Sequence record: NZ_CP035505.1
Length of the DNA: 32,758 nucleotides
Direction: 5' to 3' (one strand)
From: a plasmid
Shown here: positions 8,462 through 31,741 of the stretch, in pieces
Layout of the letters: every line of letters starts with the position of its first letter
Position numbering within the stretch: the first letter of the stretch is position 1
Position numbers and translations under genes: made by a program
The notes under the pieces: model-generated
Told to the model about the DNA's origin: nothing
Database searches by the model: none
What the model saw: the letters and a program-made list of their open reading frames with translations, nothing else

Positions 8462-8544
8462 GATCTGACCAGTCTCACTGCCCGGACCCCCGGGCAACAG
8501 GACGACTCACACAACCACCGGACCTACCAAACGGGGTCAGCCCA

Positions 8545-10755: not shown

Positions 10756-10805
10756 GCCCGGGCAGGCGCCGCGCCGCCGTCTCGCACCTGATCAGGACAC
10801 TGCAG

Positions 10806-11621: not shown

Positions 11622-12207
11622 AGGGGGCGGCCCACCCCAGGTGGGAGTCGCATCGGGAACAGCGCACTTCGATGCGCTCCATCCCCAAGGACCGATCACG
11701 TAGGTAACGCACCCTGTCCTCGGCCAGGGGAGCCCAGAACGAGGGCCACCCGCAGTGCGAGTCGAACTTCTCAGTGCTGGTGAACAGCTCTTGGCCACAC
11801 GCCCGGCACTGATAGACACCGGTGGTGTGCGCGTCGTAGTACTGGCCCGTGTACGGCCTCTCGGTGCCCGCCTTCCGGAGTACCTGGAACTCCTGCGGCG
11901 TCAGTTCCTCACGCCACTGCTCCTCACTCTTGGTCATGCCCCTAACGGTTTGAACCGGCTCGTTCTAAAACCGACAGAGGTGGTTGCCACTCGGGTCTTC
12001 CGAATCCGAGGAAACTCGCATGACTCACAGAACTTCGTACGCCGGCGTCAGGCCCATCACCGCCTGGTGGTGCTGCGCCACGTGGAGGAGGTCTGGTCGG
12101 ACGGAATTCTGGACAACTCCACACCGGATCCAGGGTGCTAAGACCGCGTCGCCAACCTGGTGGGTCAGTAAGTTTCCTCGCGCCGTATGGCAGAGTTGCG
12201 TCCTGCA

Positions 12208-14083: not shown

Positions 14084-14096
14084 TGGGCCGCCCCCT

Positions 14097-14912: not shown

Positions 14913-14962
14913 CTGCAGTGTCCTGATCAGGTGCGAGACGGCGGCGCGGCGCCTGCCCGGGC

Positions 14963-15247
14963 CTAGAAGTTTCCCTCGGCCAGCTCCTTGAGCGCGGCCT
15001 TCTCCAGCTCCGCTTCGGCCAGCAACCGCTTGAGCGTGGCGTTCTGCTTCTCCAGCTCCTTCAGGCGCTTCGCGTCGTCGGCCTTCAGTCCGCCGTACTG
15101 GTTCCGCCACCGGTAATACGTCTGCTCGGATATCCCAAGCTCCCGACACACCGCGGCGATGTCGCTACCGCCCGCGAGCATCCTGTCGGCCTGCCCGAGC
15201 TTACGGACGACCTGCTCCGGGGTGTGACGCTTCCTGCTGTTCGACAT
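14963..15247 (-). CDS. IS3-family transposase OrfA (copy D, diverged)
   Basis: MSNSRKRHTPEQVVRKLGQADRMLAGGSDIAAVCRELGISEQTYYRWRNQYGG...; ATG 83 bp inside the IRL as in the other copies. Confidence 0.8.
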   Translation of the reverse strand: MSNSRKRHTPEQVVRKLGQADRMLAGGSDIAAVCRELGISEQTYYRWRNQYGGLKADDAKRLKELEKQNATLKRLLAEAELEKAALKELAEGNF

Positions 15248-15524
15248 GATCTGACCAGTCTCCCTGCCCGGACCCACGGGCGACAGGACGACTCCCAGAA
15301 CCACCGGACCTAAAAAACGGGGTCAGCCCAGGCCCCCTCATCGAATACGGGATCACCCACGGCGCCCGCCGCATCGTTTATCCCGCGCGCAGCGAGTGGG
15401 ACTACACCATCTGACTAGAGACGAGCGGGCCTGGTAACCCAGGCCCGCTCGCACACACGGACCAAGAACCACCCTGGTCCGACACGTATTTTCCCACACC
15501 GTACGATATGGAGGGGGGTGACCC

Positions 15525-16177: not shown

Positions 16178-16600
16178 ATGAGCATCCCCGCAGCCTTGAC
16201 CGGGTTCGTTGGTGCCGAGCCCACAGTGCAGCACACCGAGTCCGGGAAGACGGTCACCCGGTTGCGCCTGGCGTGTAAAGACGAGTACCGCGACGCTACC
16301 GGGCAGTTCCAGGAGCGTGACACATTCTGGGTGGTCTGTGAAGGGTGGGGCCACGTAGCCGAGGCCATGGCCACCTACTCGAAGGGAACCGCCCTGATCG
16401 TCGTCGGTCAGTGGCGCCAGTCCGACTATGAGGCGGATGGGCAGAAACGCTCAGCTCGTTTCGTCGCAGTCACCGCAGCCGGCGTCAATGATGCGATCCC
16501 TTCTCGGTCGAGTGATGCCGCTAAAGCGGCATCATCGCAGGAGGACCACCATGCCGATGAGGCTTCCGAGGGGGAGGCCGCCGAGGAAAATCCGCTGTGA
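16178..16600 (+). CDS. ssb: Single-stranded DNA-binding protein (SSB), plasmid/conjugation-associated
   Basis: 140 aa with an OB-fold-like N-terminal ~110 aa (…TVTRLRLACKDEYRD…FWVVCEGWGHVAEA…ALIVVGQWRQSDYEADGQKRSARFVAV…) and an acidic C-terminal tail DEASEGEAAEENPL. RBS GGAAGGAACAC. Confidence 0.7.
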   Translation: MSIPAALTGFVGAEPTVQHTESGKTVTRLRLACKDEYRDATGQFQERDTFWVVCEGWGHVAEAMATYSKGTALIVVGQWRQSDYEADGQKRSARFVAVTAAGVNDAIPSRSSDAAKAASSQEDHHADEASEGEAAEENPL

Positions 16601-17706
16601 AAACGTCCAAGGACACCAAGAGCCCCGGAGCATGGCGGACCTTCAAGGCGCTGGTGTTGAACCTGCCAGATCCGGAGGTTCCCTCCCTAGCGGATCGACT
16701 CAAAGGAAGAACGCCGAGCGCCAAGACTGGGACGCCGCCGCCGGCACCTTCTGAGAAGCCCTCGGCGTGGTCCGCGGCCGCGGCGCAGGCGCGGCCTGCA
16801 TCGCCTGAGCCGGCGGAGGAAGAAGAAACGCTGTGGGAGGCCGTGATCCCGTCCGCTAAGTCCTCGCGGTGGAAGCGATTCGTGCGCTGGTCAGCTATCG
16901 GCTTGATTCTCCTGTTCTTGTGGATTGGTCTCCGTGCAGCGATCTTCGGAGTCAACAGCAACACCACCCCGCAAGAAGTTCCGCTCACGGCGACCTTCAA
17001 CCACGGACAAGCCGCCGGCACCGCCCAGCGATTCACGGTCGCGTACCTGAGCTGGGACGAGGCGAACAAAGACCAACGGGCAAAGAACATGAGCCCGTGG
17101 TACTCGGGAGGCAACGCGCCGGCTGAACTGGGATGGGATGGGCACGGCAAGCAAACGGCTCAGAACGCCACAGTCCGTAACGTGGAGCCACTGGATAAAG
17201 ACCACGCTCGAGTCATGGTCACCGCCGACGTCACGCCCTACCAAAAGGGCAAGGCGCAGCCGACCCAGACCCAAACGCTCGAAGTGAAGGTTCAGGTGAC
17301 CGAGGACGGCAGCGCCGTCTACGGGGCACCAGGTGTAGTGGGCAACCCCCAACCGATCACCGCGACCGAGGCCGAGGACAACACCCCCAACGATTCCGTA
17401 CTGTCCCAGCAAACCAAACCCGAAGCACAGACCTTCTTCACCAGCTACGGGTCAGAGACCGACCTTGCATCCATCACCGCCCCCGGGGCGATGGTGCAGG
17501 GATTGGGTGGCGCCCTCAAAGACCCGAAGCTCCGTGAGTGGACGGTCAAGAACGGTGCCGAGGATCACCGCGCGGCGCGCGCGGTCGTGCAGTGGACGAC
17601 CAAAAGCGGCGCGAAGTCACAACAGACCTACGAGCTGAAACTCGTGAAGGTCAGTGGCGGTCAATCTGCCAAATGGCAGGTTGAAACAATCAATGGAACG
17701 GAGTAA
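16597..17706 (+). CDS. Bitopic membrane protein of conjugation apparatus (TcpC/VirB8-position-like)
   Basis: GTG start overlapping the ssb stop. Disordered Pro/Ala-rich N-terminus, one TM helix (IGLILLFLWIGLRAAIFGV), then a ~250-aa extracytoplasmic domain. Architecture and position match TcpC-like proteins of Gram-positive T4SSs. Confidence 0.5.
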   Translation: MKTSKDTKSPGAWRTFKALVLNLPDPEVPSLADRLKGRTPSAKTGTPPPAPSEKPSAWSAAAAQARPASPEPAEEEETLWEAVIPSAKSSRWKRFVRWSAIGLILLFLWIGLRAAIFGVNSNTTPQEVPLTATFNHGQAAGTAQRFTVAYLSWDEANKDQRAKNMSPWYSGGNAPAELGWDGHGKQTAQNATVRNVEPLDKDHARVMVTADVTPYQKGKAQPTQTQTLEVKVQVTEDGSAVYGAPGVVGNPQPITATEAEDNTPNDSVLSQQTKPEAQTFFTSYGSETDLASITAPGAMVQGLGGALKDPKLREWTVKNGAEDHRAARAVVQWTTKSGAKSQQTYELKLVKVSGGQSAKWQVETINGTE

Positions 17707-17947: not shown

Positions 17948-18583
17948 ATGAGCACGTACAAGGCGCGGGTCGTCACCAAGCAATTCAAGATCGAGACCCG
18001 CCAACACGAGCTGTTCGGTCTAGATCTCGGAGAGGGCCCGCGCCGGCGCGACCTAGGACTTGGGCTGATCATCATTCCCGTCTGGGTCGGCTTCATGTGG
18101 CTACTACTGGGACCGCCCGAGAAGTACACGATGCTGCTGTACATGGCCCCGCCCGTGCTGATGCTCATGTACGGCATTCAGGAAAACAGCTCCAATCCGC
18201 GGAGGATGAACGCCACCGTGTGGTTGCTGACCTTGCGTTATGGCCTGGTGGGACACCGCCCCATCATCCGCGGGGGAGCCAGGCCGGCCAGCCGCCAGGA
18301 GTACATCTCGTTTACTGATCGGTGGCCCATCCACCGCATCGCCCCAGCTCTCGGAATGAAGCACCTGGTAAATACGGACGGCACGCTGAACTGGACCGAG
18401 GTAGCGAACATCCCCGGTCTGGGCTGGACCGCTCGCTACGCAACACGTGATCACGACCGCTCCAAACGCCCGTCCGGGCCGCCGGTAGCGATGCGACCCA
18501 CCGTCTACCTCTACTCCACTGAGGAAATCGCAGCGGTCGCTCATCGACAAAAAGCCAAGCGGGAGAAGAAGACGAAAGCATGA
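17948..18583 (+). CDS. Membrane protein of T4SS (VirB3/TcpE-like position, two TM helices)
   Basis: 211 aa. The hydrophobic hairpin LGLGLIIIPVWVGFMWLLLGPPEKYTMLLYMAPPVLMLMYGI sits immediately upstream of, and overlapping by ATGA, the VirB4-like ATPase. That is the typical VirB3-VirB4 arrangement. Confidence 0.5.
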   Translation: MSTYKARVVTKQFKIETRQHELFGLDLGEGPRRRDLGLGLIIIPVWVGFMWLLLGPPEKYTMLLYMAPPVLMLMYGIQENSSNPRRMNATVWLLTLRYGLVGHRPIIRGGARPASRQEYISFTDRWPIHRIAPALGMKHLVNTDGTLNWTEVANIPGLGWTARYATRDHDRSKRPSGPPVAMRPTVYLYSTEEIAAVAHRQKAKREKKTKA

Positions 18584-21147
18584 AAATCACCAAGCGCATC
18601 AAGGCACTGGTTGGCTTCGATGAGGCCCGCCAGGCCCCGCCGCCGGCCTACCACACCATCACCGACGGGCTACTGATCACTGCGACAAAAGCTGAGGCGT
18701 GGTATGACCTCGCCACTGCCAATCTCGATACAGCCACGACCGACGAGAAGCTCGACAACCTCGATGCCGTGATGACCGCTGTAGGGAAGGCCCTGGGAGA
18801 CCGTCACTGTCACCTCAAGCTCATGTGGGGCCGATACGACGGGCGCGCGTACTACGAGGATGTGCAGAACCTCTACGACGGCGGTTTGGGCGAGGGTCGG
18901 AAGTGGGCCCAGATGTGGGCCGAGCGTATCGACGCGCTGGGGCTGCCCGAACGTCATCTCATGCTGGGGGTGACCATCGAGCTACGCGGGGGAGCCGCTG
19001 CCGCCAGCGTGAAACGCACCGCCAACGCCGCGGTGGGGGAAAACCCCGACCGGCTCAGCGATAAGGAGCTGGCGGATTACCAGATCATCGCCCGGCGCAT
19101 CATGAAGGCCCTGGGCTCGTGCCCGTTGCGCGCCCGGCAGGCGACCGCGGAAAAAATCGCCTGGATGATCGGTCGCGAGACCGCCCGGGTCAAGCAGACT
19201 GTGCCCCGAGACGGGCAGATCAAGGGCGCCCGTCTCTCACACCTGCTCTCGTCCAAAGCGGTGCCCTATGCCGATCACCTGGAAGTCCTCACTGAATCCG
19301 GGGAGGTTGGGATGTACACCGCGGTGCTGCCGATCATTGACTTTCCCGACGAGTACGAAATCCCGGGGGAAGCCGAGTGGCTACGCACACTTTCGACGAT
19401 CACCAAGCTGGCCGAGACCGGTACGGACGAGGCCGGAGAACCGATCTTCGAGGAAGTGCCGGTATTTGCCGATGCTTCCGTACGCTTCCAAGGAGTGCCC
19501 CGCCGGGCGGCGCTGAAAATGGCCGACGAGGCCCGCCGCACGGCCAAGGAGCAGCGCCGCTCCGCTGCGAAGCATTCCGCCGGGGAAGTATCGACCGAGG
19601 TTGAGGACGCCGAGACCGACAACGAGCAGCTCAAGGTCGATATCAAGCGCAACGGCACGTCTCTGGTCGTGCATCACCCGCGGCTGATCGTCACGGCCAC
19701 CTCCAAGGAGGATCTCGAGGACAACGCCCAAGCTCTCATCAACCATTACGCGGACTTGGGAATCACGGTGACCCGCGGGGAAGACGAGCAACGCGACTTC
19801 TGGCTTGAGCTGCTTCCTGGCGACGCACTAAGAGTGTCCGACCTAGGCCAAACCGTCACCGATGTCGCCTTCTGGGGCTCGTTCTTCTGGGCTGGGTCCA
19901 AGGTGGGCGACGCCCACGGCGGCATCAGCGGCATGACCACAGGCACCACCGCCAGCCTGTTCCGCTCCAACGTGCTCGGAGCCGCCGACCGCGGCGACAC
20001 CACGACCACCCTCTACGGCGGCCGGTCAGGTCGAGGTAAATCCACCGCCATGATGATCGAGCTGCTCAGCGCCATTCAGGAGGGCCCCGAACCGGCGTGG
20101 GCGACCTTGGTCGACGCCAAGGGTGACCTTGGTGGGCTCATCAGCGTGTGCGAAACCTTGGGCATCCCTAACGGCCTGGTGCAGATCGATGAGAAGAACA
20201 GCGGCGCCGCCGACATGTTCCGGGCCGTGGAGCCGGCCGCGGCGCCGGCCGCGGTGCAGCGTCAGCTCGCGCTCATGGCTATGGACGCCGACCACGTCGC
20301 AATCGCGGCGTCCTCCACGCTGCGCTACGCCACCGAGGAAGCCAAGGAATCCGACACCCCATCAACCTATGGAGTGATCCAGCGGATGATGCGAGATGAG
20401 GAAAAGCCCGTTGCATCCTTCGGCCGTTATCTCAACGATCTGGCCGAAGACCCGCTGGGCAAGATCGTCTTGGGACCGCCCACCGGCGAGACGTTCCTGA
20501 CGGATCAGGCAGGGCTGTGGCTGCTGCAAGTTCCCCGGCTGTCGCTGCCCGACGCCCACAGCATGCAAAGTGACTGGGATGCCTACAACCGGCTGTCCAT
20601 GGCGGTGCTGCAAGGCATCACCACCTACGCCCTGGCCATTTCATCGTCCAAGCCGCTGCGCTCCCGTCGTAAGGGCGTGGCGATCCCGGAATGTCACCTG
20701 TTCCTCAACGCCCACGGCGGGGCAGGGTTCCTCGATCAAATCGCGCGTATGGGACGCGCGTTCAACACGTCCTTGATCCTCGATACCCAGGACTGTACCT
20801 CTATCGCGGAGGTTCCCGGACTGGTCGAACAACTTCAAGGAGTGCGGATCTTCCAGCTCACGTCGGAGCAACAGCAAGATGCGGCGTCCAAGCTGCTGGG
20901 CTTGAAGCCAGACGCCAGCACCCGGCGCATGATTCACGGACTGGCGCGCATCGAGGGCGCCGATGTGCTTCGCAAGGGACACGCCCTGGTGCGCGACTGG
21001 TTGGAGAACGTGGCCACCGTCCAATTTGATTACCCCTCACCGGAGGTAGCCGAGGCCATGAGCACAGACCCGAACGCGAAATCCAACCGGTACGTCGAAG
21101 ATCCCGAGGATGCAGAATCCCTCACCACCCAGGAGGTCATGGCATGA
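18580..21147 (+). CDS. VirB4/TcpF-like conjugative T4SS ATPase
   Basis: 855 aa. Walker A GGRSGRGKST and a hydrophobic-D/Q Walker B-like LILDTQD. Its size and position in a cluster with VirB6-like, hydrolase and coupling protein genes support the call. Confidence 0.7.
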   Translation: MKITKRIKALVGFDEARQAPPPAYHTITDGLLITATKAEAWYDLATANLDTATTDEKLDNLDAVMTAVGKALGDRHCHLKLMWGRYDGRAYYEDVQNLYDGGLGEGRKWAQMWAERIDALGLPERHLMLGVTIELRGGAAAASVKRTANAAVGENPDRLSDKELADYQIIARRIMKALGSCPLRARQATAEKIAWMIGRETARVKQTVPRDGQIKGARLSHLLSSKAVPYADHLEVLTESGEVGMYTAVLPIIDFPDEYEIPGEAEWLRTLSTITKLAETGTDEAGEPIFEEVPVFADASVRFQGVPRRAALKMADEARRTAKEQRRSAAKHSAGEVSTEVEDAETDNEQLKVDIKRNGTSLVVHHPRLIVTATSKEDLEDNAQALINHYADLGITVTRGEDEQRDFWLELLPGDALRVSDLGQTVTDVAFWGSFFWAGSKVGDAHGGISGMTTGTTASLFRSNVLGAADRGDTTTTLYGGRSGRGKSTAMMIELLSAIQEGPEPAWATLVDAKGDLGGLISVCETLGIPNGLVQIDEKNSGAADMFRAVEPAAAPAAVQRQLALMAMDADHVAIAASSTLRYATEEAKESDTPSTYGVIQRMMRDEEKPVASFGRYLNDLAEDPLGKIVLGPPTGETFLTDQAGLWLLQVPRLSLPDAHSMQSDWDAYNRLSMAVLQGITTYALAISSSKPLRSRRKGVAIPECHLFLNAHGGAGFLDQIARMGRAFNTSLILDTQDCTSIAEVPGLVEQLQGVRIFQLTSEQQQDAASKLLGLKPDASTRRMIHGLARIEGADVLRKGHALVRDWLENVATVQFDYPSPEVAEAMSTDPNAKSNRYVEDPEDAESLTTQEVMA

Positions 21148-21577: not shown

Positions 21578-23785
21578 ATGACGACGCCCACTTCTGTGCC
21601 CCCCGCCCCGCGCTGGGCTACCAAGACCCTCGCCTTCACCCAGATGATGTGGCGATACCTCCCCCTGGTGTACCTCGCGCGCATTCTGCGCGGGATGACT
21701 GCGCGGCAGTGGAAAATTTTCGCCGTCGTCTTCACCCTGACCTTCCTACTCGGCACGGGCATGGCAGTAGCCGCCGACGACAACGCCGGCAGCGCGGACA
21801 TGGGCTGGTCCAGCTTCGTGCCGCTTCAGGACTACTCACACGGCGGCGGCAAGACACTCGTGGAGGACATTCCCACCAGCCGCTACTTCATTGACGATGA
21901 GGTGGACGGGAACATCGTCAACGCGGTCACCGCGGCCGGCAACGGCCTCGCTGACACGCTGTTCATCACTACTGTGTCCATCGCCTGGGTCGTGGTGGCG
22001 ATCATCAGTTGGCTGCTGGGCACCAGCGACGTCGGCAATGACACCTTCAACCTGACCCAGCTCATCGGCAACGCCTCGGCCGAGACAATGGGGTGGCTGT
22101 TCCCCACCTGCTTGGCGATCGCCGCCGTTGCCGTGTGGGTTGATCACAGGCGAGAGCGCACCGGTCTCAACGGCATCTTCACCGTCTTGATCCTTGCGGT
22201 CATCGCCACAGGCTTCACCCTCTTCCCCGGGGTGTTCGTCAAGGGCCTCGAGACCGTGCGGGCCGGCGGCCAGGCCGTTGTTACGTCTGTGATGCCGGAG
22301 GACCAGACCGGCACCCAGTTGCCATTCGAGTACGGAAACCCGGACTACTCCCAGAACACCGACACCGAGGCATTCACCCGCCAGGTCACCGATACCGTCT
22401 GGCGCGCAGCGGTCGTCACCCCGTGGTGCATGGTGGAATTCGGCAGCATCGACGTGTGCCAGAAGTATGGCAAGGAGATGCTGACCCGCGCGTCCCGGGA
22501 TGAGCGCACCGATGACGTCATCAAGAAGCAGATGTACAAGGACGAGTCCATCGGTGGTAAGAACGGCGACGCCGGCCAATGGGTTCATGGAGAGATGTGG
22601 ACCCAACGCCTCGGTATGGCCGTGCTGGGCCTAGTGGTATGCCTACTGATGGTGTTTTTGGTGGCCACGCTCGTGTTCAGTGCCGTCATCGCCCTCGTGC
22701 AATCCCTGCTCCTGCTGGTCATGGGGGTGCTGTTCCTGGTCCTGGGGATGATCCCTGGGCCGCCTCGCCAGTGGTGCCGTAACTGGGCTGTGGCCCTGTC
22801 CGCGGCTGTCCTGGCAAACATCGTTTCCATGCTGCTGCTCGTGGTCGCTCTGGGCGCGATCACCACAATTTTCAGTAGCCCCGATGTGGTGTGGTTCAAG
22901 GCTTACGGGCTATCCATCCTCACCCTTCTGGCCGCGCTGGGAATCCGCAGCATGATCCAGCGGATCGTGGATTACCAAAGCGACGCCACCGGCGCCGGGG
23001 CCGGGGGGCGGATCATGCGCATGCTGATGATGCGCCAACTGTTCCGCGTCACCAATCGATCCCACAGCAAGACCGCCGCCCCCACAGGTGCAGGCAAGGG
23101 CCGATCCAGTGACAAGACGCGAAGCGCGCAGGCCGGCCCCACCGGGGCGGCCACACCGCGGCGCGGCAGTCGCGATGTGGTCTCCACACGGATCAGCCAG
23201 GCAAACAACCGCCGTCAGCCGGACGCACAGACCTCAACGGCACGGGGCGGCGCCCACGGCGCCGAGCGCGGAACGGCCGCCGAGACTCGTCATCAACGGG
23301 CCACCACCCGCGCCGGCTCGACGGCAGGAGCGCAACGCGCAGATCGGGCCCAGCACACGGCCGGCCGGCGCCAGGCCGCACAGGGCTCCCATGCCGCCCC
23401 CCAACGGCGTGGCGCGCCAGCCCAAGGCGACAGCAGCTCGCGCACGGAAACAGCACCTTCGCATGCAGCGCCTTCGCGTGCGGCAACCCACTCGGCTCCG
23501 CCCAGGCGTGGTGCGCCGGCCCAAGGCGGCAGCAGCTCGCGCACAGAGACAGCACCTTCACGCGCAGCATCCTCCCGGCCGAGCACGCAGCGGGACCGCA
23601 ACACGAGCGCGCCAGCGGCCGAAGCGCCGGGCGCTCGACCGGCGCCGCAGCCCAAGAAGCGACCGGACGCGCGCATTGATGCCGCCAGCGGGTTACGGGG
23701 CGGACCTCGCACCGTCGCACCGCGTCAAACGAAACCGAACCAGACTGAATCCCCCCGCCGTGCGCGTCAGACTAGGAAGGGCTAA
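21578..23785 (+). CDS. VirB6/TcpH-like polytopic membrane protein with long disordered Arg/Ala/Ser/Thr-rich C-terminal tail
   Basis: 735 aa with at least 6-8 hydrophobic helices in the first ~470 aa. The C-terminal ~260 aa are low complexity and contain a 33-aa tandem repeat. Large polytopic proteins of this kind follow VirB4 in Gram-positive T4SS loci. Confidence 0.55.
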   Translation: MTTPTSVPPAPRWATKTLAFTQMMWRYLPLVYLARILRGMTARQWKIFAVVFTLTFLLGTGMAVAADDNAGSADMGWSSFVPLQDYSHGGGKTLVEDIPTSRYFIDDEVDGNIVNAVTAAGNGLADTLFITTVSIAWVVVAIISWLLGTSDVGNDTFNLTQLIGNASAETMGWLFPTCLAIAAVAVWVDHRRERTGLNGIFTVLILAVIATGFTLFPGVFVKGLETVRAGGQAVVTSVMPEDQTGTQLPFEYGNPDYSQNTDTEAFTRQVTDTVWRAAVVTPWCMVEFGSIDVCQKYGKEMLTRASRDERTDDVIKKQMYKDESIGGKNGDAGQWVHGEMWTQRLGMAVLGLVVCLLMVFLVATLVFSAVIALVQSLLLLVMGVLFLVLGMIPGPPRQWCRNWAVALSAAVLANIVSMLLLVVALGAITTIFSSPDVVWFKAYGLSILTLLAALGIRSMIQRIVDYQSDATGAGAGGRIMRMLMMRQLFRVTNRSHSKTAAPTGAGKGRSSDKTRSAQAGPTGAATPRRGSRDVVSTRISQANNRRQPDAQTSTARGGAHGAERGTAAETRHQRATTRAGSTAGAQRADRAQHTAGRRQAAQGSHAAPQRRGAPAQGDSSSRTETAPSHAAPSRAATHSAPPRRGAPAQGGSSSRTETAPSRAASSRPSTQRDRNTSAPAAEAPGARPAPQPKKRPDARIDAASGLRGGPRTVAPRQTKPNQTESPRRARQTRKG
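23400..23590. repeat. ~99-bp tandem duplication (about 1.9 copies) inside the VirB6-like gene tail
   Basis: GGCGTGGCGCGCCAGCCCAAGGCGACAGCAGCTCGCGCACGGAAACAGCACCTTC... is repeated 99 bp later with a few substitutions. It encodes PRRGAPAQG(D/G)SSSRTETAPS. Confidence 0.5.
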
Positions 23786-24531: not shown

Positions 24532-25824
24532 ATGCCGACCGGACGGGATATCGCAGGTCTCCTTGTACGCGGCATAGCCGCGAAGCTGCTGGGCAAGTGG
24601 CTCCTGATCCCGGCTGCGCTGCTCCTTGTGCTCGCGCTCCTATCTGTGGCCGTGCTGATGATGGGATCGGCAGGTCAAGACCAGTCCAGCCGCAGCAGCG
24701 GATGTGAAGCCCCCGGGCACAACTCTCAAGCGGTCAGTGCCAACAGCGGCACGTCCTACGGCGGCACCGCAAAAGATCAAGCCTCCCAAGTGGAAATCAT
24801 CAAGAAGATCGACGCCGGCGTAAAGGAGCTGGGCTACAGCGGCAAGGTCACCCGCCTGGTCTCCATCGCCGCCATGGGCGAAAGCACCCTGGAAAACATC
24901 AGCTATGGGGACAACGCCATAAACCCGGACGGCTCCGTGGCCGACTCCATCGGCATCTTGCAACAGCAATCCAACTGGGGCTCGAAAGAGCAGCGCATGG
25001 ACCCGAAAACCGCGGCCAAGCTGTTCGTGCTCGGCCCACATATGAAGGGCGGCGGTCTAGCTGACGTAGCCAACTGGGAAAGCCTGAGCGAGTCCGTAGC
25101 GATCAACAAAGTGCAGATCAACCAAGATCCGCTGCACTACGAGCGCGAAGGCCGCATCCAGTACACAGATCAGATCATCGCCAAGGCCGGCATCGACGTT
25201 TCTCGTTCCGGGAAGACTCACGGCGACGCTGCCACGGAGGCTGACGACGACCAGGCTGCATCCACCACGGACGAGCAGGACACGGACTTGTGCGCCGGCA
25301 GTGCGGCCGCCGGTCAACCCGGCGGAACCAGCGGGGGCAAGGATGATTACCCCATCACCGGCATTCCCGGTCCCTACGTCTACGTCGAGGACGGCGCCGG
25401 CTTCTACAAGGGCGAATGCACCAGCTACGCGATGTGGCGCTTGGCCAAGCATCTGGGAGCCAAGGACGCAAACACCGCCGCATGGCTCGTCGGTAACACC
25501 AAGGGCGGCAACGGGGCCAAGCTCGGGAACGGCGCGGAGTGGCGTGCCGGCTGGGAGGCGAGAGGCTGGACGGTCACAACGAAGCCCACAGCCAACTCCG
25601 TGGCGTGGTGGGGAGCCGGGGGCGCACAGGGAATTGGGTCCGCCGGCCATGTCGCCTGGGTGGACAAGGTTCAGGAGGACGGCAAGACGTTCGAGATCTC
25701 CGAGTACAACAACGAATATCTCGCGCCTCCCGGGCATAAGTACTCCCATCGCCCGGCCGTCACCATGGACAACCCCCAAGCGCCAAATGCATTCCTCGTC
25801 CCGCCGGCCAAGGATAAACTGTAA
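24532..25824 (+). CDS. Membrane-anchored peptidoglycan hydrolase with C-terminal CHAP (NlpC/P60-like) domain (TcpG/VirB1-like)
   Basis: N-terminal TM (LLIPAALLLVLALLSVAVLMMG). The C-terminal segment has the conserved Cys (GECTSYAMWR) and His (GHVAWVD) spacing of CHAP domains. A middle ~170-aa domain may be a second glycoside hydrolase-like module. Confidence 0.7.
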   Translation: MPTGRDIAGLLVRGIAAKLLGKWLLIPAALLLVLALLSVAVLMMGSAGQDQSSRSSGCEAPGHNSQAVSANSGTSYGGTAKDQASQVEIIKKIDAGVKELGYSGKVTRLVSIAAMGESTLENISYGDNAINPDGSVADSIGILQQQSNWGSKEQRMDPKTAAKLFVLGPHMKGGGLADVANWESLSESVAINKVQINQDPLHYEREGRIQYTDQIIAKAGIDVSRSGKTHGDAATEADDDQAASTTDEQDTDLCAGSAAAGQPGGTSGGKDDYPITGIPGPYVYVEDGAGFYKGECTSYAMWRLAKHLGAKDANTAAWLVGNTKGGNGAKLGNGAEWRAGWEARGWTVTTKPTANSVAWWGAGGAQGIGSAGHVAWVDKVQEDGKTFEISEYNNEYLAPPGHKYSHRPAVTMDNPQAPNAFLVPPAKDKL

Positions 25825-25859: not shown

Positions 25860-27278
25860 ATGAACACGGCAACTGTTTCAGCCACCAAGGCGACGCTGAC
25901 CCTGGACGGGCAGCAGTACGACCAGGACGTGCCGGGGCTTGAGGACGCCCGCGTGGCCATTGTCCAGGCCGTGCACGAGCACGCCCGAAGCTATCCCTGT
26001 CGCATCGTCGTCACCGATCCCGAGGAAGGCGTCAGCGGGCTCGAGTTCGCAGAAGACGGCAGTGTGCAGCCGTTTGACCCCGACACGGAGACGTCCACTA
26101 AGGATGTCAGCTCGGACGCCGACACTACCCGGGAGCAAGCCGTCCCGGTCCTGTTGGACGACGATCACGACGACGAGCTGCTTCCTCCGGTGCCCACCCG
26201 TCCGCGCCGGCAGCGCGCGCGCCCGGCGCAGGCTCCCGCCGCGGAGGTGACGGAACAGGACGCTGGGCCGGTCGAGCAACAATCCGACGGGAAAGCGGAC
26301 GCCCCTGCGACCTTCCGGGGTTCTGAATCATCAGACGTTCCTAGTGCCAGTGATTTCTTTGCAACGAAACCTGCTACGGAAGAAGCGCCGGCGCAAAAAG
26401 GTTGGCGCGGTGCGCTTAATAGTTGGGGATTGCGCTTGGCTCCCAGCCAGGACGAGCTGGAAGAACGCGCAGCGACCCGCGACGTACAGCGCGGCGTCAC
26501 ATCGCACAAAACCGTGATGGTGGCCAACCTCAAGGGCGGGTCAGGTAAAACCACTGTCACTTATCTGTTGGCAGCGGTGCTGGGGCGGGTTCGAGGCGGG
26601 ACCGTGCTCGCATGGGACAACAACGAAAACCGCGGCACTTTGGCGTATCGGTCGCCTTATCGGGCAAACACGGCTAGTACGGCTATTGACTTGTTGCGCG
26701 AACAAGACTTCTTCGAGGGGTCCGGTCAGGTTGCCGAGTTGGTGAATTTTGTACGTCCCCAGGGGTCTAACAAATTTGATCTTCTCGCGTCCCAAGATCA
26801 GGGCAGCGACCGGCCGGTAATCGACGGGGAGGGTTTCGAATCGTTGCACTCCCTGCTGCAAACCTTCTACCGCATGATCATCGTTGATACGGGCAACGCA
26901 TCAAATGCAAGCACATGGCAGGCGGCCGCAAAGATCTCTGATCAAATCGTCATCGTGTGCGCCAATGCGGAAGACTCCGCCCAGACGGCGGCCGAAACCA
27001 TTGACGCACTGATTAAATCCGGTCACGGGGCGACGGTGAAAAATTCGGTTGCCCTTGTGGTTGATGCCCAGCCCCAACGAGATAAAGCGAAGCGGCAGGC
27101 AGCGGAACAGCGATTGCAGAGGATCACGGATCATTTCTCCCACCATGTGCGGGCTGTGCATGTCCTGCCATGGGAAACCACCCTGAATGACGGGGAGCGT
27201 ATCGAGTGGGAAAGTCTGTCGAAGCGCACCCATAAGGTAATGCTCAATGCGGCCGCGTCGATCATGAATGGGATGTAG
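25860..27278 (+). CDS. ParA/MinD-family ATPase with ~230-aa acidic disordered N-terminal extension
   Basis: C-terminal half has the deviant Walker A LKGGSGKTTVTYLLAAVLG plus IVDTGN (Walker B/switch-like). The N-terminal half is D/E/P-rich with no recognisable domain. Confidence 0.65.
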   Translation: MNTATVSATKATLTLDGQQYDQDVPGLEDARVAIVQAVHEHARSYPCRIVVTDPEEGVSGLEFAEDGSVQPFDPDTETSTKDVSSDADTTREQAVPVLLDDDHDDELLPPVPTRPRRQRARPAQAPAAEVTEQDAGPVEQQSDGKADAPATFRGSESSDVPSASDFFATKPATEEAPAQKGWRGALNSWGLRLAPSQDELEERAATRDVQRGVTSHKTVMVANLKGGSGKTTVTYLLAAVLGRVRGGTVLAWDNNENRGTLAYRSPYRANTASTAIDLLREQDFFEGSGQVAELVNFVRPQGSNKFDLLASQDQGSDRPVIDGEGFESLHSLLQTFYRMIIVDTGNASNASTWQAAAKISDQIVIVCANAEDSAQTAAETIDALIKSGHGATVKNSVALVVDAQPQRDKAKRQAAEQRLQRITDHFSHHVRAVHVLPWETTLNDGERIEWESLSKRTHKVMLNAAASIMNGM

Positions 27279-27320
27279 ACTGTACCCCGATAGGGGGACG
27301 GCAACCGGGGGGTTGAGGCA

Positions 27321-27554
27321 ATGATCCGTCATATTCTTGTTGGAGCCTTACAGCGATACGCAGCCACGAATGTGCGCCGCGCGTCTCAGCCCATCCCGCA
27401 CGCCGATGTCGCTTACGCCCGTGTCATGGGCTTTTACCGGCCTCGTCACGAGTCGCATTTCCGGCCAAGCCTGGAAGATATTGTTCCGCGGCGGGAAATG
27501 TCACGGATAGTTCGGCCGTGGCCCAATACTCATGACACCACGAAGGAATTGTAG
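27321..27554 (+). CDS. Hypothetical small protein (77 aa)
   Basis: Plausible RBS GGGGGTTGAGG before ATG 27321. No family recognised. Confidence 0.35.
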   Translation: MIRHILVGALQRYAATNVRRASQPIPHADVAYARVMGFYRPRHESHFRPSLEDIVPRREMSRIVRPWPNTHDTTKEL

Positions 27555-27558
27555 GAAC

Positions 27559-27741
27559 ATGTCTGAAGAATCTTCCCCGGCCGCCGATTACCAGCCGACC
27601 CGGGTCCAGGTCACCACACACATCTCCCTTGAAGCACGACGGGTTCTCGAACGCGCGAAAGCCGAGACGGGTAAATCCCTGGGGAGCCTGATGGATGAGT
27701 CAGTGCTGACTCATCTAGCGTCCTACCGCTCGCGTAGCTGA
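27559..27741 (+). CDS. Ribbon-helix-helix DNA-binding protein (candidate relaxosome accessory factor or antitoxin-like regulator)
   Basis: RBS AAGGAA before ATG 27559 (the ORF-track start at 27532 is rejected). 60 aa with the segment VQVTTHISLEARRVLERAKAETGKSLGSLMDESVL matching the RHH pattern. Followed by a terminator and the candidate oriT. Confidence 0.5.
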   Translation: MSEESSPAADYQPTRVQVTTHISLEARRVLERAKAETGKSLGSLMDESVLTHLASYRSRS

Positions 27742-27756
27742 TCCTCTACAGCGCCG

Positions 27757-27795
27757 AAAGGGCCACCAACCCCATCGGGGTACTGGTGGCCCTTT
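27757..27795. terminator. Hairpin AAAGGGCCACCA-N15-TGGTGGCCCTTT
   Basis: 12-bp perfect inverted repeat starting 16 nt after the stop at 27739-27741, with T-rich 3' flank TTTGCTTTG. Confidence 0.5.
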
Positions 27796-27833
27796 GCTTT
27801 GCCCGTAGAGCGGTCAAGGGACAACCCACACCC

Positions 27834-28000
27834 GTAACATGAGGTGTAACATGACCTATAACATGCAATGTTATAGGCGACCCCCGGAACCCTGCCCCAC
27901 GAGACGCCAACTCGACCAAGACCACTCCCCCTCTTCGTCCCTCATCAGTGCAGTGGTCTTGGTCGAGTTGGCTTGGGGCAGGGTTCCGGGGGTCGAGTTG
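27834..28000. other. Candidate origin of transfer (oriT): three TAACATG direct repeats, a 10-bp-stem hairpin, and a ~40-bp imperfect inverted repeat with GTCGAGTTGG iterated
   Basis: GTAACATGA at 27834, 27845 and 27857, about one helical turn apart. Hairpin CCTATAACAT-gca-ATGTTATAGG at 27854-27876. Inverted-repeat arms 27880-27925 and 27951-27991 (CCCCCGGAACCCTGCCCCA...CCAACTCGACCAAGACCACT / AGTGGTCTTGGTCGAGTTGG..TGGGGCAGGGTTCCGGGGG), with a third GTCGAGTTGG at 27991-28000. Located between an RHH gene and a Replic_Relax-like gene adjacent to the coupling protein gene. Confidence 0.45.
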
Positions 28001-28101
28001 GTGAGTCAGGTTCAGTTGGGAGGGTGTGGAGTAGTTGAAGAAAAGATTATAGAGAATCGAAAGTTTTTATTTCAGTAGAGTATTGAAAGAAGTAGATTTA
28101 T

Positions 28102-28797
28102 ATGATTGTTGATCGAGATGTGGAGTTGTTGAGTTTTATGAGTCAGTGGCAGTTTATGATTGTTAGGCAGTGTGCGGAGTATTTGGGTTGTTCGGAGCAG
28201 GTGGCGAGGCGGCGTTTGCGTAGTTTGAGGTCGGCTGGGTTGGTGGATGTTACGGTTCCGTTTGCGGATTACCGGCAGGTCTATTGGGTTAATAAGGATG
28301 GTCTCAAATTTTTGCGGAAGTCGTTGCCGGTGGATAGACCGCGTTATGGTCCGAAAATATCGCAGTTTGTCCATGATCGTATATTGGTGGATTTGGCTGT
28401 TTCGTTTCATCGGGAGAATCCCAGTTACACAATATTCGGTGAGCTGGAGATGCGGCGCCTGGATGCGGAGGCGGTTTCAAAGTCTGAGGAAACGCAGTTT
28501 GCGCTCAAGCGTTGGCAAGCGGGTCGTTATGTTAGCGTATTTCCCGATATGTCGGCCGTAAAGGGGAATGCGCGGTTTGTTATCGAGTATGAGCATACGA
28601 AAAAGCAGCGTCAACGACTAAGGTCGTTGATGTATTCGTATGCGACGAGTACGGAAGTTACGGCGGTCAAGTATTATGTGGCGCCGGCGGCGTATTCTCA
28701 GGCGGTGAGCATTTACAAAGAGTTGGAGCCAACTCTCCCGCTCGTTGGGGGTAAACCTAAGCTGCAAGTTGCTCTCTATGAGGATAAAGGAGTCTGA
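28102..28797 (+). CDS. Replication-relaxation (Replic_Relax) family protein, putative relaxase/relaxosome component, in low-GC GT-rich island
   Basis: 231 aa. The N-terminal wHTH pattern RDVELLSFMSQWQFMIVRQCAEYLGCSEQVARRRLRSLRSAGLVD and the later HDRILVDLAVSF match the Replic_Relax family layout as I recall it. Stop overlaps the start of the coupling-protein gene (TGATATG). GC content is markedly lower than the flanks. Confidence 0.5.
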   Translation: MIVDRDVELLSFMSQWQFMIVRQCAEYLGCSEQVARRRLRSLRSAGLVDVTVPFADYRQVYWVNKDGLKFLRKSLPVDRPRYGPKISQFVHDRILVDLAVSFHRENPSYTIFGELEMRRLDAEAVSKSEETQFALKRWQAGRYVSVFPDMSAVKGNARFVIEYEHTKKQRQRLRSLMYSYATSTEVTAVKYYVAPAAYSQAVSIYKELEPTLPLVGGKPKLQVALYEDKGV

Positions 28798-28798
28798 T

Positions 28799-30934
28799 AT
28801 GTCAGCGCATGGTGGTCCGCGTATTCGCATGAGGGATACGGAAAGGCGGCCAGAACAAGACGCCTTAACTACAATGTCTCGCGCCGCTGCCTTGATCTTC
28901 GTTCTGCTTACGCCTCTGACGGCTGTTTTGGTGTTTGTGCTTGCGGTGCTTTTGTCTCGTATCAAAAAGGTGCGGCCGTGGTGGTTCTTGTTGGCTGGAC
29001 TGATCCTGTTCGTCATATCGTTCGTTGCGGGAGGGTTCCGGGCGTATTTCACGATCTACCGCGAGCTGTTCGCTCTGGTGGCTAACGGGTCCGGTCTCTC
29101 CTCGATAGGCACTGAGGTCGCGGAATATCTCGGAAGTGAGTGGAGTCGGTTACTTCTCACTCAGGTGTGGCTTGGTGTTCCTCTCGCTCTAATCATCGCT
29201 TCGATCATCATCCTTGCTCGTGGTCGATACGCGGCGAAGTGGCGAGACCGGGGTGAGGACAGTCTGAAACCTCAGCAGCAGATTTCACGGGCGTTGAAAA
29301 AAGCTCCCGAGTGGCCTCAGAAAGACGTCCGCAGTCTTGATGATTTACTGGTGCGCCTTGGGGTCAATGAACATGACGGCCGGCCGTGGGACATTTCACT
29401 TGCTGCATTGCGGCATCACGTCTTTGTATGCGGCCCTTCCGGGTTCGGTAAGACCACGACCATCATCGAGGTACTACGAGGGCTGACCCAGGCGCCGGCC
29501 GCCGCGCGGTTCAGGATCGGGACGGTGTTCATCACGATGAAGCCAGACCCGGACATGACGGATGCGCTGCGCGCCTTAGCTGAGCTGTCCGGCCGGCGGT
29601 TCCACCACGTGACCCATGATGGAACAGGAGTGACGTACAACCCGCTACGGCACGGGACGGCCGCTCAACGCCGCAACATTCTCATCGAGGCCGAAGCGAA
29701 TGCCGCCAACGGTGGATTTAGTGAGCCCCACTACCGGATCACCGGGTCACGGTTCACTCTGCTGGCGCTGCGTGCTTTGGAGCAGGCGTGTGAGCTGCGA
29801 GAGTCCTACAGTTTCGGTGGACACCGCCGAAACTGGACGATGGATATACACGACCTCACGCGCATGATGCGCCCGTCCTTTTTGGAACACATGGCCGATG
29901 TGGGTGAAGACGAGGGTCTAAAGGCAGATATCCGCGACTACTTTCAAGAGATGCAGGATGACCCGTCCGTCGCCGGAGGCGTGGGGGGCATGCGCGCACG
30001 CTTCTCCAACATCGCCGAAGGGGCCGCCGGCGCCACGCTGCGCGAGGACACCGCCGGGCTGGACTTGCGAGAGGCTATCCAGAACGGCGACGTCGTGGTG
30101 TTCGATTTGGACGCGGCCACCGATATGGAGGCGGCCCAGTACGTCGCCAACCTGGCCGTTGCTGACTGGACCGCTGCTATCTCCGAACTTGGACAAGCGA
30201 AGTGGCATGGAGACCCCAGCGATCCCCAACGCATGAACCTGCTTGTTGTGGACGAGTTCTCGGGTCTAGGCGGCGCTGGGTTGAAAAACGCTCTCGCGCG
30301 ATCACGCAGTCAAGGTGGCTCAGTGATGCTCAGCACCCAGAGTTACGGTGAGCTGGCCGAGACTTCGGTGAAAGGATTCCGTGCATCACTGATCACCAAC
30401 ACGTCAGTGAAGCTGCTGCACCGCATCGAGGACGAGGCCGAAGAACTGGCCCAACTGGCTGGGACCCGTAAAGCGATGAAGGAGACGACCCAGACGTTCG
30501 AGGACCGCGATCTGCTGGGTTCCCAGACTCGAGCTAGTGGGCAGGGTTCACTCCGTGAAGTTGATGAGTTCAAGATCCATCCCAATGTCCTCAAGGATCT
30601 CGAACCGGGCGAGATCGTGGCGCTGATCCGCAAACCCAAGGAGTATGCGCGGGTGATGGTGCGGAGAACGCCCCCGCACGCGCTGGTCAGCACTCTCGAA
30701 GCCGCCAAGACGACCAATGAAGAAACCCGCCCCGCCACCGAAGATCACGACAGTGCAGTGGCAGGTAAGACTCAGGCTCGGGAAGGCCAGAAGCAATCGG
30801 CATGGACGGCAGCCGCCATTCAGGCTCGGACTCCCTCGCAGGCGAAGGCCCAAGACGACCCGCGCGCGCCGGCGGTTTCAATGGGTGGGGAGGACGAGGG
30901 CAGCGACGCCATGGATATGCCCATCCGTGAGTGA
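28799..30934 (+). CDS. Type IV coupling protein (VirD4/TraG/TcpA-like, TraM-recognition-domain type)
   Basis: RBS AAAGGAG before ATG 28799. Two N-terminal TM segments, Walker A VCGPSGFGKTT and Walker B-like LLVVDEFSGLGG. Its C-terminal tail is acidic. Confidence 0.75.
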   Translation: MSAHGGPRIRMRDTERRPEQDALTTMSRAAALIFVLLTPLTAVLVFVLAVLLSRIKKVRPWWFLLAGLILFVISFVAGGFRAYFTIYRELFALVANGSGLSSIGTEVAEYLGSEWSRLLLTQVWLGVPLALIIASIIILARGRYAAKWRDRGEDSLKPQQQISRALKKAPEWPQKDVRSLDDLLVRLGVNEHDGRPWDISLAALRHHVFVCGPSGFGKTTTIIEVLRGLTQAPAAARFRIGTVFITMKPDPDMTDALRALAELSGRRFHHVTHDGTGVTYNPLRHGTAAQRRNILIEAEANAANGGFSEPHYRITGSRFTLLALRALEQACELRESYSFGGHRRNWTMDIHDLTRMMRPSFLEHMADVGEDEGLKADIRDYFQEMQDDPSVAGGVGGMRARFSNIAEGAAGATLREDTAGLDLREAIQNGDVVVFDLDAATDMEAAQYVANLAVADWTAAISELGQAKWHGDPSDPQRMNLLVVDEFSGLGGAGLKNALARSRSQGGSVMLSTQSYGELAETSVKGFRASLITNTSVKLLHRIEDEAEELAQLAGTRKAMKETTQTFEDRDLLGSQTRASGQGSLREVDEFKIHPNVLKDLEPGEIVALIRKPKEYARVMVRRTPPHALVSTLEAAKTTNEETRPATEDHDSAVAGKTQAREGQKQSAWTAAAIQARTPSQAKAQDDPRAPAVSMGGEDEGSDAMDMPIRE

Positions 30935-30986
30935 GTGGTGAGCTGACATGGTGGGCCAGTGTGCGCCGAAAGGGCACCTCGCCGGT

Positions 30987-31123
30987 CCGTCGTCCTGATA
31001 GCCCAGCATAGGGGCCGCTACAGGCAGTCAAGGGCGCCTACGGCGTCGCTGCGCGATGGGCTACGCCCACCCTTGACAGCCTTCCGCTTACCCCCTATTT
31101 GCTTCCAGCTATCAGGACGACGG
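30987..31123. repeat. Nested inverted repeats: 16-bp perfect arms CCGTCGTCCTGATAGC / GCTATCAGGACGACGG 105 bp apart, enclosing inner GTCAAGGG / CCCTTGAC arms
   Basis: Read directly in the sequence, in the intergenic region between the coupling-protein gene and the first leader-cassette gene. Confidence 0.5.
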
Positions 31124-31235
31124 TCCAGGCTGACACCGCGGCCAGTAGGCCGGCACCTTCGCGCGGAGGCTCCCGCATGCCCCGCGCCGGCCGCGGTCGG
31201 ATGAGAAAAAGCCTTGTGAATCTCGGGATATCCCC

Positions 31236-31318
31236 TTGTGTTCTATAACTACGCACTGTAGACTAAGAACATAACGCGGGGGAGGGAAAGACCCCCACCA
31301 ACCGAGAGGACGCAGGCA
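31236..31318 (+). promoter_or_regulatory. Promoter + conserved leader cassette, copy 1 (-35 TTGTGT, 17-bp spacer, -10 TAGACT, leader hairpin GGGGG-AGGGAAAGA-CCCCC, RBS GAGAGGA)
   Basis: Near-identical ~60-bp block GTAGACTAAGAACAT(A/C)A(C/G)CGGGGGAGGGAAAGACCCCCACCAACCGA(G/A)(A/G)GGA repeated at 31846 and 32279. The hexamers and spacing were counted directly. Confidence 0.55.
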
Positions 31319-31741
31319 ATGAGCACCACGACCACCACCAAGCAGCAGCAGCGCAAGGAAGCCGCCGCGGCCAAGCGCGCCGAGGTCCAGGCCAAGGCTG
31401 CCGAGGCAGTGCAGCGGATCGAAACCGACCCGGATACCGCTGCCCGCTTCGAGGCACTGGCTGACCGCCTACCGGCCTACAGCTTGAAGAATTTGCAACT
31501 GATTTTCGCCCAGTTCCCCGAGGCGTCAATGTGCGCCGGATTCAACAAGTGGCGCGAGGAAGGCCGCACCGTGCGGAAGGGTGAGCGCGGCATCAAGATT
31601 TTTGCCCCGACCCAGCGGACCAAGAAGGACGAGAAGGGCGCACCGATCATCGACCGCGCGACCGGGGAGCCGGAGAAAGAAGCCGGATGGGTGATGGTCA
31701 CCGTCTTCGATATCAGCCAGACCGACGAGCTGACCGACTGA
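31319..31741 (+). CDS. ArdC N-terminal domain-like (DUF1738-type) ssDNA-binding protein, standalone
   Basis: The segment YSLKNLQLIFAQFPEASMCAGFNKWREEGRTVRKGERGIKIFAP matches the conserved core of the ArdC/TraC N-terminal ssDNA-binding domain (…YS..N..LI..Q…AT.VAGF..W..LGR.V.KGEKGI.I.AP). No metalloprotease C-domain is present. Confidence 0.6.
   Translation: MSTTTTTKQQQRKEAAAAKRAEVQAKAAEAVQRIETDPDTAARFEALADRLPAYSLKNLQLIFAQFPEASMCAGFNKWREEGRTVRKGERGIKIFAPTQRTKKDEKGAPIIDRATGEPEKEAGWVMVTVFDISQTDELTD

Follow-up and report, generated by a model that had tools for sequence, protein, structure and literature searches.

A candidate origin of transfer beside a putative MOBC-like relaxase gene in a conjugative element of Micrococcaceae type

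The DNA analyzed here is a 32,758-nt stretch of the plasmid record NZ_CP035505.1 (hereafter, the window), the right half of which is a Gram-positive-type conjugation region with all genes on the plus strand. Our subject is the segment 27834–28000, where an initial annotation had noticed direct repeats, a hairpin and a long inverted repeat and had proposed an origin of transfer (oriT). Upstream lie the genes of a Gram-positive-type type IV secretion system (T4SS), encoding TcpC, VirB4, VirB6 and CHAP proteins. Downstream, as that annotation had described, the segment directly precedes a gene for a putative relaxase, here a protein of 231 aa, followed by the gene for a VirD4-type coupling protein (T4CP). 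Family scans of the window proteins found no HUH, MOBH, MOBT or other relaxase besides this 231-aa candidate. Coordinates of all features are collected in Table 1.

Table 1. Features of the candidate transfer origin and of the conjugation region around it, in window coordinates.
Feature	Position	Strand	Remarks
TcpC-like protein	16597–17706	+	
VirB4-like ATPase	18580–21147	+	
VirB6/TrbL-like protein	21578–23785	+	
CHAP hydrolase	24532–25824	+	
ParA-like ATPase	25860–27278	+	
Small conserved open reading frame (ORF)	27532–27741	+	ATG 27559 is the likely true start; synteny extends to five related loci
Terminator-like hairpin	27757–27795	+	AAAGGGCCACCA / TGGTGGCCCTTT, then GCTTTG; closes the upstream T4SS operon
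Three 12-bp direct repeats	27834–27869	+	GTAACATGAGGT, GTAACATGACCT, ATAACATGCAAT; proposed sites for the relaxase winged helix
Perfect 10-bp hairpin	27855–27877		Third repeat and an inverted fourth copy; abuts the large inverted repeat
Left arm, C/A-rich	27878–27926		Outer segment 27878–27899, bulge CGAGAC 27900–27905, inner segment 27906–27926
Apical loop, 25 nt	27927–27951	+	Holds TCGTCCCTC at 27935–27943; proposed nick region
Right arm, G/T-rich	27952–27995		Inner segment 27952–27972, T 27973, outer segment 27974–27995
Extra direct copy of GGTCGAGTTGG and a degenerate copy	27991–28019	+	27991–28001 and 28009–28019; outside the right arm
C-depleted tract	27996–28145	+	4% C, low G+C from 28030; between the repeat and the relaxase start
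231-aa winged-helix and PD-(D/E)XK protein, putative relaxase	28102–28797	+	
VirD4/TraG-type coupling protein	28745–30934	+	Matches to TraG-D_C, TrwB_AAD_bind and T4SS-DNA_transf; coordinates of the maximal ORF, true start probably near the relaxase stop
ArdC-N domain ORF	31319–31741	+	

Three copies of TAACATG begin at 27835, 27847 and 27859. The initial annotation had counted them rightly but gave their phasing as 11–12 bp, whereas they recur every 12 bp exactly. The three copies are confined to 31 bp, and neither strand of the 32.8-kb window holds a further copy, where about 1.1 would be expected by chance. The hairpin that had been described next to them is present (CCTATAACAT at 27855–27864 and ATGTTATAGG at 27868–27877, with a 3-nt loop), as is the long imperfect inverted repeat, which resolves into two perfect segments with arms of 22 nt and 21 nt around the 25-nt loop. 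The outer and inner segments are separated by an asymmetric bulge, in which CGAGAC on the left stands opposite the single T on the right. The loop block TCGTCCCTC occurs only once in the window. Folded as single-stranded DNA (ssDNA), positions 27820–28020 reach −67.9 kcal/mol, against −29.2 ± 3.5 kcal/mol for dinucleotide shuffles (z = −10.9; none of 200 shuffles was as good). The iterated decamer GTCGAGTTGG had been correctly counted three times in one or the other orientation, two of these copies being merely the two inner arms: GGTCGAGTTGG lies at 27961–27971 and again outside the arm, and its inverse at 27907–27917. As for base composition, a locally AT-rich region against a background of roughly two-thirds G+C had been described. 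The background measures about 64%, the repeat region (27800–27999) is only mildly lower at 58.5% G+C, and it is the flank at 28000–28199 that falls to 39%.

That flank is also unusual in a more specific way. Among all 150-nt intervals on both strands of the 32.7 kb, 27996–28145 has the lowest C content (the mean is 32%), and the window's C-free runs of 25 nt or longer all lie at 28014–28143. The excess of G over C that marks the tract runs on into the relaxase gene (side region 27996–28250). A scan for sigma-70-type promoters returned a minus-strand match (10 of 12 positions, CTGAAA-18-TATAAT) at 28046–28075, in the AT-rich part of the tract and facing the palindrome. The same scan found no plus-strand promoter for the relaxase gene, the consensus being uninformative for actinobacterial promoters.

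The 231-aa protein joins an N-terminal winged helix of MarR/ArsR type (MarR-like) to a C-terminal PD-(D/E)XK nuclease fold. Pfam returned sub-threshold matches only, to HTH_5 and to Replic_Relax, the latter aligned end to end at 19.6 bits against a gathering threshold of 25.3 bits. The close family comprises 16 clusters at 44–64% identity, mostly without annotation, and within it D149, E162, E164, K168 and R172 are invariant; an exhaustive profile search retrieved 1160 representatives at E ≤ 1e-3. Across 95 diverse relatives, H91, D149, E162 and E164 are invariant and E114, P148, K168, R172 and Y191 are conserved in more than 90%. Pfam Replic_Relax is matched by 37 of these 95 at E ≤ 1e-3. The initial annotation had called the gene a member of the Replic_Relax family; the deep profile supports this at the level of the superfamily, and the protein's own Pfam score is below threshold.

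The same profile of 95 sequences connects the protein to TraX of the enterococcal plasmid pAD1, matching an alignment of the enterococcal TraX family with 97.0% probability (E 9.6e-11, 174 columns). TraX and its counterpart on pAM373, Orf8, have the same plan of winged helix and PD-(D/E)XK fold, and the series D...ExE...K...R...Y is aligned throughout: D149 of the window protein corresponds to D152 of TraX, E162/E164 to E170/E172, K168 to K176, R172 to R180 and Y191 to Y203. The columns invariant among the enterococcal homologs are E28, D152, E170, E172, K176, R180, Y181 and Y203, of which E28 aligns with Q15 and is not conserved. These are reportedly the residues of TraX that were mutated in 2013 by Francia et al., who are said to have proposed Tyr181 as the catalytic tyrosine.

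A Bacillus cereus protein annotated as ‘replication-relaxation family’ bridges the two groups, with an hhalign probability of 99.2% (E 1.6e-19) to the window family and a BLASTP match to Orf8 over the catalytic block (E 6e-4). Orf8 itself carries the label ‘replication-relaxation family protein’, exceeds the Pfam Replic_Relax threshold and is encoded on a plasmid that MOB-suite types as MOBC. Replic_Relax proteins have a PD-(D/E)XK fold and are found in Bacillus/Clostridium and Actinobacteria (PMC3424549), and PF13814 has been equated with the MobC superfamily and associated with VirD4 coupling proteins (PMC5357655). CloDF13 MobC, the enterobacterial MOBC prototype, is assigned to the same relaxase class (PMC12857230). 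We infer that the 231-aa protein is a putative relaxase, a divergent actinobacterial candidate of MOBC-like type. The initial annotation had left the relaxase class unidentified, and it is this class that makes the layout of the locus diagnostic.

A search of 27300–31300 against PLSDB plasmids gave no match to the candidate region itself. Its conservation is structural, so comparison required loci anchored on the protein. Ten further loci with close homologs were retrieved; they come from the genera Kocuria and Rothia and from metagenomic contigs, and nine are distinct, L010 being a duplicate of L009. The shared order is CHAP gene, ParA-like gene, small ORF, a gap of 300–600 bp, relaxase gene and T4CP gene, the adjacency of the last two being conserved across loci; L009 and L010 have no called ParA-like gene or small ORF, and there the gap follows the CHAP gene. 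The initial annotation had suggested a comparison with the oriT sequences of actinobacterial T4SS plasmids; among the related loci, the module lies upstream of the homologous gene in all ten (nine distinct). The motif TC(C/G)TCCCTC occurs in every gap, once per element, always within the apical loop of nested palindromes that span about 120–250 bp and whose minimum free energy as ssDNA is −72 to −115 kcal/mol per 290 nt. In most of the actinobacterial loci the palindrome reaches three nested levels (170–250 bp).

The loop block TCGTCCCTC is invariant across all 11 aligned loci, and the stem beneath it co-varies. In the 10-sequence core alignment of the inner stem (18 bp), 12 of the 18 pairs carry changes in both partners, no pair is altered in just one, and no G·T wobble is seen; 98.9% of cells are paired, none of 500 shuffles reaches these values, and controls slid along the alignment pair at 33–45%. 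Such strict Watson-Crick symmetry around a conserved unpaired loop argues for a DNA hairpin or cruciform with a protein-recognized loop. It also argues against a structure acting at the RNA level, such as a structured leader, an antisense RNA or a terminator, as might be suggested by a very stable hairpin standing between two operons and ahead of a long leader-like tract. No wobble in 18 pairs across 10 sequences is as expected of a DNA palindrome, a separate canonical terminator already precedes the structure (L001–L003 have an equivalent hairpin and T-run ahead of the module), and no T-run follows the large hairpin. Rfam 15 gave no family match at gathering thresholds and, at E ≤ 1, only spurious miRNA-hairpin matches (29.9 bits against 230). 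We regard an RNA-level explanation as extremely improbable. The bulge CGAGAC and the inverted last repeat copy are both conserved in L001–L003.

Three or four short repeats flank the palindrome on its left in each locus, and a lag of 12 bp gives the top autocorrelation in 8 of 11. Their sequence is lineage-specific and tracks the recognition helix of the relaxase in six classes, a correlation drawn from few independent lineages. Where the helix reads SEQVARRR (the window, L001 and L006) the repeat is TAACAT; where it reads SPRV(V/T)WRR (L005 and L007) the repeats are CTATACA or GTACAG; and where it reads SAQMSWRR (L004 and L008) they are GTAAAGA or ATAAACA. Three further classes (L002/L003, L011 and L009) each combine a helix and a repeat of their own. 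The small protein encoded upstream is a poorer correlate of repeat type, because its beta-strand is the same in groups whose repeats differ.

More distant relatives retain the arrangement. In Brachybacterium there is a three-level palindrome with the loop motif in the form CTTCGTCTCAT, and on plasmid pSTS2 of Streptomyces tsukubensis, whose protein is only about 30% identical, the loop motif is kept as TTCGTCCCTC. The pSTS2 module (L015 3741–3888) has perfect nested arms of 28 bp and 17 bp, and its loop is the reverse complement of CCTTCGTCCCTCTGA; the whole is inverted relative to the relaxase-like gene, with ACACCC-type repeats between palindrome and gene. This inversion indicates that the module is an orientation-independent unit. 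In Bacillus cereus, the inverted repeat upstream of the gene is bipartite and has its bulge on the left side.

These features bear on whether the site could be an operator and promoter only, by which the 231-aa winged-helix protein would autoregulate the relaxase/T4CP operon while transfer starts elsewhere. The MarR/ArsR-type helix-turn-helix at the N-terminus, the position directly upstream of the protein's own gene and the AT-rich stretch between repeat and start codon would all suit such a role, and a function in transcription regulation was once predicted for Replic_Relax proteins (PMC3424549). Yet the nuclease residues are invariant in the 95 relatives and sit in a PD-(D/E)XK fold, a combination not expected of a protein that only represses; the palindrome, nested over about 120–250 bp, its stems co-varying and its unpaired loop invariant, goes far beyond the needs of an operator; the module of pSTS2 is inverted relative to its gene; and a complete Rothia plasmid offers no second candidate for either relaxase or oriT. 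Since regulation is often combined with oriT function at one site, an operator competes with an oriT only if it excludes one, and in that exclusive form we judge it decidedly unlikely.

The C-depleted tract, too, is part of the conserved module. A C-poor tract is present in every related locus from L001 to L011 (1.5–8% C over 120–370 nt). It is weaker in Brachybacterium (14% C over 438 nt; L016 377–814), stands at 5% C in the pAD1-like region and at 10% in pAM373, where it is not extreme within its plasmid, and becomes in Bacillus cereus a run of 218 nt without any C (L014 274–491). In pSTS2 the tract lies on the inverted strand and is hence still 3' of the loop motif (10% C; L015 3700–3776, minus strand); in L017 it occupies 1208–1305. 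C depletion is kept across the whole relaxase superfamily, from Bacillota to Actinomycetota, and tracks the strand of the loop motif even if the module is inverted. We found no description of such a tract in the papers that could be searched here; it is a new observation of the present analysis. It could be an unstructured single-stranded leader for the coupling protein, or it could give rise to an R-loop-prone transcript that opens the origin; possibly it is simply an unstructured mRNA leader.

The closest parallel with an experimental record is found in enterococci. On pAM373 and in the pAD1-like region, about five plasmid-specific direct repeats phased at about 11 bp (GTATGCCTAA, TAGAGTA, GTGGAAA and TGGGATTC) lie between the T4CP and relaxase genes, followed by a bipartite inverted repeat with an asymmetric bulge and a loop of 25–27 nt, then a C-poor, purine-rich tract and the relaxase gene. 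The inverted repeat is near-identical among the E. faecalis plasmids compared and more divergent at the E. gallinarum locus. It is in this coupling-protein/relaxase intergenic region that oriT2 of pAD1 has been described, where TraX binds five direct repeats 70–120 bp from nic and no covalent DNA adduct was seen (PMC12857230). The window shares with these loci the repeats at about one helical turn, the bipartite inverted repeat, the C-poor tract and the relaxase gene, all in the same polarity, and an adjacent gene for a VirD4-type coupling protein; its repeats lie about 70–105 bp from the loop, compatible with the distance from binding to nicking in TraX. There are differences as well. Protein similarity is remote and visible only with deep profiles, the repeats recur every 12 bp instead of about every 11 bp, the loops are unrelated in sequence, the host phylum differs, and the order is repeats, inverted repeat, relaxase, T4CP in the window but T4CP, repeats, inverted repeat, relaxase in enterococci. 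The shared layout and polarity, with a conserved hairpin and variable repeats, amount to the same pattern in two phyla. Reportedly, Francia et al. also placed the MOBC nick, in their work of 2013, inside the large inverted repeat.

Small plasmids of the Bacillus cereus group (e.g., NZ_CP053967) have the same pair of relaxase and T4CP genes and a closer protein relative; they differ in their loop (CTACGTCTA) and in being AT-rich, and a comparable 12-bp repeat series was not identified. A literature search found no experimental characterization of this Bacillus system. The oriTs of HUH relaxases (F, R388, RP4) likewise combine an inverted repeat and accessory sites beside the relaxase gene, possibly with an adjacent ribbon-helix-helix (RHH) gene, and differ in that the window has no HUH relaxase. 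HUH relaxases nick a few bases 3' of a short inverted repeat. In MOBC systems, by comparison, nic is far from the binding repeats and no covalent relaxase–DNA adduct is known (PMC12857230).

With the sum of this evidence, we consider it likely that 27834–28000 and the C-depleted tract as far as about 28145 jointly make up the oriT of a conjugative element that is actinobacterial, of Micrococcaceae type, and uses a MOBC-like relaxase. The adjacent protein of a relaxase class, the T4CP gene, the co-traveling module and the layout of enterococcal MOBC origins all support the oriT proposed by the initial annotation. The kind of origin is known, with pAD1 oriT2 as its prototype; what is new is an actinobacterial member that is currently untyped. 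Its DNA module, consisting of 12-bp phased repeats, a bipartite palindrome, an invariant loop and a C-poor tract, travels with the relaxase gene across lineages. By analogy with TraX and oriT2, the winged helix would bind the phased TAACATG repeats on duplex DNA, with the repeats setting specificity. The nuclease domain would thereby be placed about 70–105 bp away, over the extruded or melted palindrome, where it might cut one strand in or beside the invariant loop TCGTCCCTC, and the nicked strand would pass to the coupling protein and then to the T4SS. The module may double as operator and promoter of the relaxase and T4CP genes, and once the element has excised it might possibly also act as a rolling-circle origin.

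Several points weigh against this interpretation. Nicking and mobilization are predictions from comparison; the window protein stays under the Pfam gathering threshold for Replic_Relax; and TraX Y181, reportedly the proposed catalytic tyrosine, aligns with L173, while the equivalent of Y203, Y191, is conserved in more than 90%. Shallow profiles (hhalign against Orf8 or a 5-sequence TraX alignment) align the winged helix-turn-helix only, which we do not take against homology because the profile of 95 sequences reaches 97%. PLSDB/MOB-suite types all 13 plasmids that carry homologs as non-mobilizable, perhaps because the family may just be absent from the MOB-suite reference set. Binding repeats beside a nick-site hairpin are also typical of rolling-circle double-strand origins. 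Finally, Replic_Relax was first annotated as ‘replication-relaxation’ and predicted to be a regulator (PMC3424549).

The last two of these points lead to the possibility that the site is a rolling-circle double-strand origin, with the PD-(D/E)XK protein as initiator of vegetative or post-excision replication. The family name itself (‘replication-relaxation’) suggests it, no replication gene was identified in the window, and phased repeats at a distance from the cleavage hairpin recall the double-strand origin of pMV158. Elsewhere, however, replication is accounted for: a RepA is encoded separately on the complete Rothia plasmid, and typed replicons are present on both pAM373 and the Bacillus plasmid. 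The gene is also regularly accompanied by a T4SS and by the gene for a coupling protein, and the sole experimentally studied relative cited is a relaxase (PMC12857230). We therefore give little credence to a replication origin in place of an oriT, and a secondary rolling-circle role beside oriT is possible.

Within an oriT, DNA processing might take a different course, without a covalently attached relaxase. The apical loop would be nicked on an extruded cruciform, so that the transferred strand would carry one of the two long, strictly complementary but strand-asymmetric arms at each end. Its 5' leader, made up of the G/T-rich arm and the C-free tract, could not fold on itself and would offer the coupling protein an unstructured handle, and in the recipient the late C-rich arm would re-anneal with the leader, clamping the two ends within the loop for resealing. 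If true, this scheme would explain the perfect Watson-Crick covariation of the long arms, the invariant loop and the shared C-depleted tract together. We consider it unlikely. MOBC is the least understood relaxase class, restriction-enzyme-like, with no covalent adduct detected and with binding far from the nick (PMC12857230).

The initial annotation had itself named an alternative location, the nested inverted repeat at 30987–31123, downstream of the coupling protein gene. In its favor, this element, which extends to 31136, has strong ssDNA structure on both strands (z −9.9 and −9.2). Its core at about 31050–31100 (GTCAAGGGCGCC..GGCGTCGCTGCGCGAT..CCCTTGAC) forms a stem enclosing three mini-hairpins, and about 50 nt of this core are 80–97% identical on 31 actinobacterial plasmids; in Streptomyces (S. 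subrutilus) a mobF relaxase gene follows it at a distance of about 370 bp. The 31 sites are without annotation and cover at least a dozen actinobacterial genera, including Streptomyces, Glutamicibacter, Nocardia, Micromonospora, Rhodococcus, Kocuria, Pseudonocardia, Mycobacterium and Curtobacterium. On the other side, the systems beside which the element occurs are unrelated to one another (a rolling-circle rep gene of the 8-kb plasmid pPA43082, MobF in Streptomyces, and a 1.6-kb Curtobacterium replicon), and it is absent from all other loci with the relaxase, including the complete Rothia plasmid, whereas the module at 27.9 kb is present in all of them. Its high conservation across orders fits a host-recognized signal better than a relaxase-specific site. 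It thus appears to be a generic element, and it is very unlikely that the real oriT lies there. Our best guess is a host-recognized single-strand initiation or origin signal (sso/ssi-like); a nick region for HUH-type enzymes is possible. No Rfam family matches the element, and an identity with the Streptomyces ‘sps’ palindrome CGTCACGTGACG (PMC4170104) was rejected, that sequence not being found in it. The ArdC-N domain ORF begins about 200 bp downstream of the structured element (30987–31136) and encodes 140 aa with only the ArdC N-terminal ssDNA-binding domain (PF08401), without the metalloprotease domain.

The comparison has consequences for how such plasmids are classified. The complete Rothia nasimurium plasmid (L005, NZ_CP056082.1; 42,892 bp) looks like a head-to-tail dimer of a unit of about 21.45 kb, in that identical protein accessions recur 21,451 bp apart, with some genes disrupted in one copy. 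One unit encodes RepA, ParA, a resolvase, a T4SS, a T4CP and the MOBC-like relaxase homolog, with no other annotated relaxase, and judged by its gene content is apparently a very compact, self-transmissible plasmid. CloDF13 (L012, NC_002119.1), a classical mobilizable plasmid, is typed as non-mobilizable by PLSDB, with mobC absent from the distributed gene table, which is another sign that the MOBC class is under-called by current typing. The Pfam threshold misses the window protein, and MOB-suite as reported by PLSDB does not recognize its plasmids as mobilizable, so that a number of compact conjugative plasmids in the genera Kocuria, Rothia, Brachybacterium and Streptomyces are at present called non-mobilizable. 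The loop motif in a co-varying palindrome beside a gene for a winged helix-turn-helix and PD-(D/E)XK protein is a usable oriT signature for the annotation of Actinomycetota. More broadly, the comparison yields an anatomy of MOBC origins, with helix-tracking repeats, an invariant loop as the candidate nick region and a C-depleted flank shared across phyla. A specialist in conjugation may find an origin at this site unsurprising; the value lies in the clean comparative anatomy.

The remaining genes of the window are of less direct concern. The small ORF upstream of the module had been labeled an RHH gene, a label that Pfam and NCBIfam do not bear out: neither gives a match, and the best hints have E of about 0.09. 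Its profile likewise found nothing significant against PDB and Pfam at E ≤ 10. An alignment of its homologs shows a conserved core, RVQ(I/V)TT...R..L, and the product is possibly an RHH accessory protein. The left half of the window holds cargo genes and insertion sequence (IS) elements. Four IS3-family copies of about 1.25 kb (2517–3764, 7295–8544, 10388–11637 and 14084–15336), two in each orientation, are 92–99% identical; a partial IS3-family copy lies at 4612–4825 and a Mutator-family transposase gene at 12314–13561. The IS copies bracket cargo (GNAT, alpha/beta hydrolase and TetR genes) beside the transfer region, in what may be composite-transposon structures.

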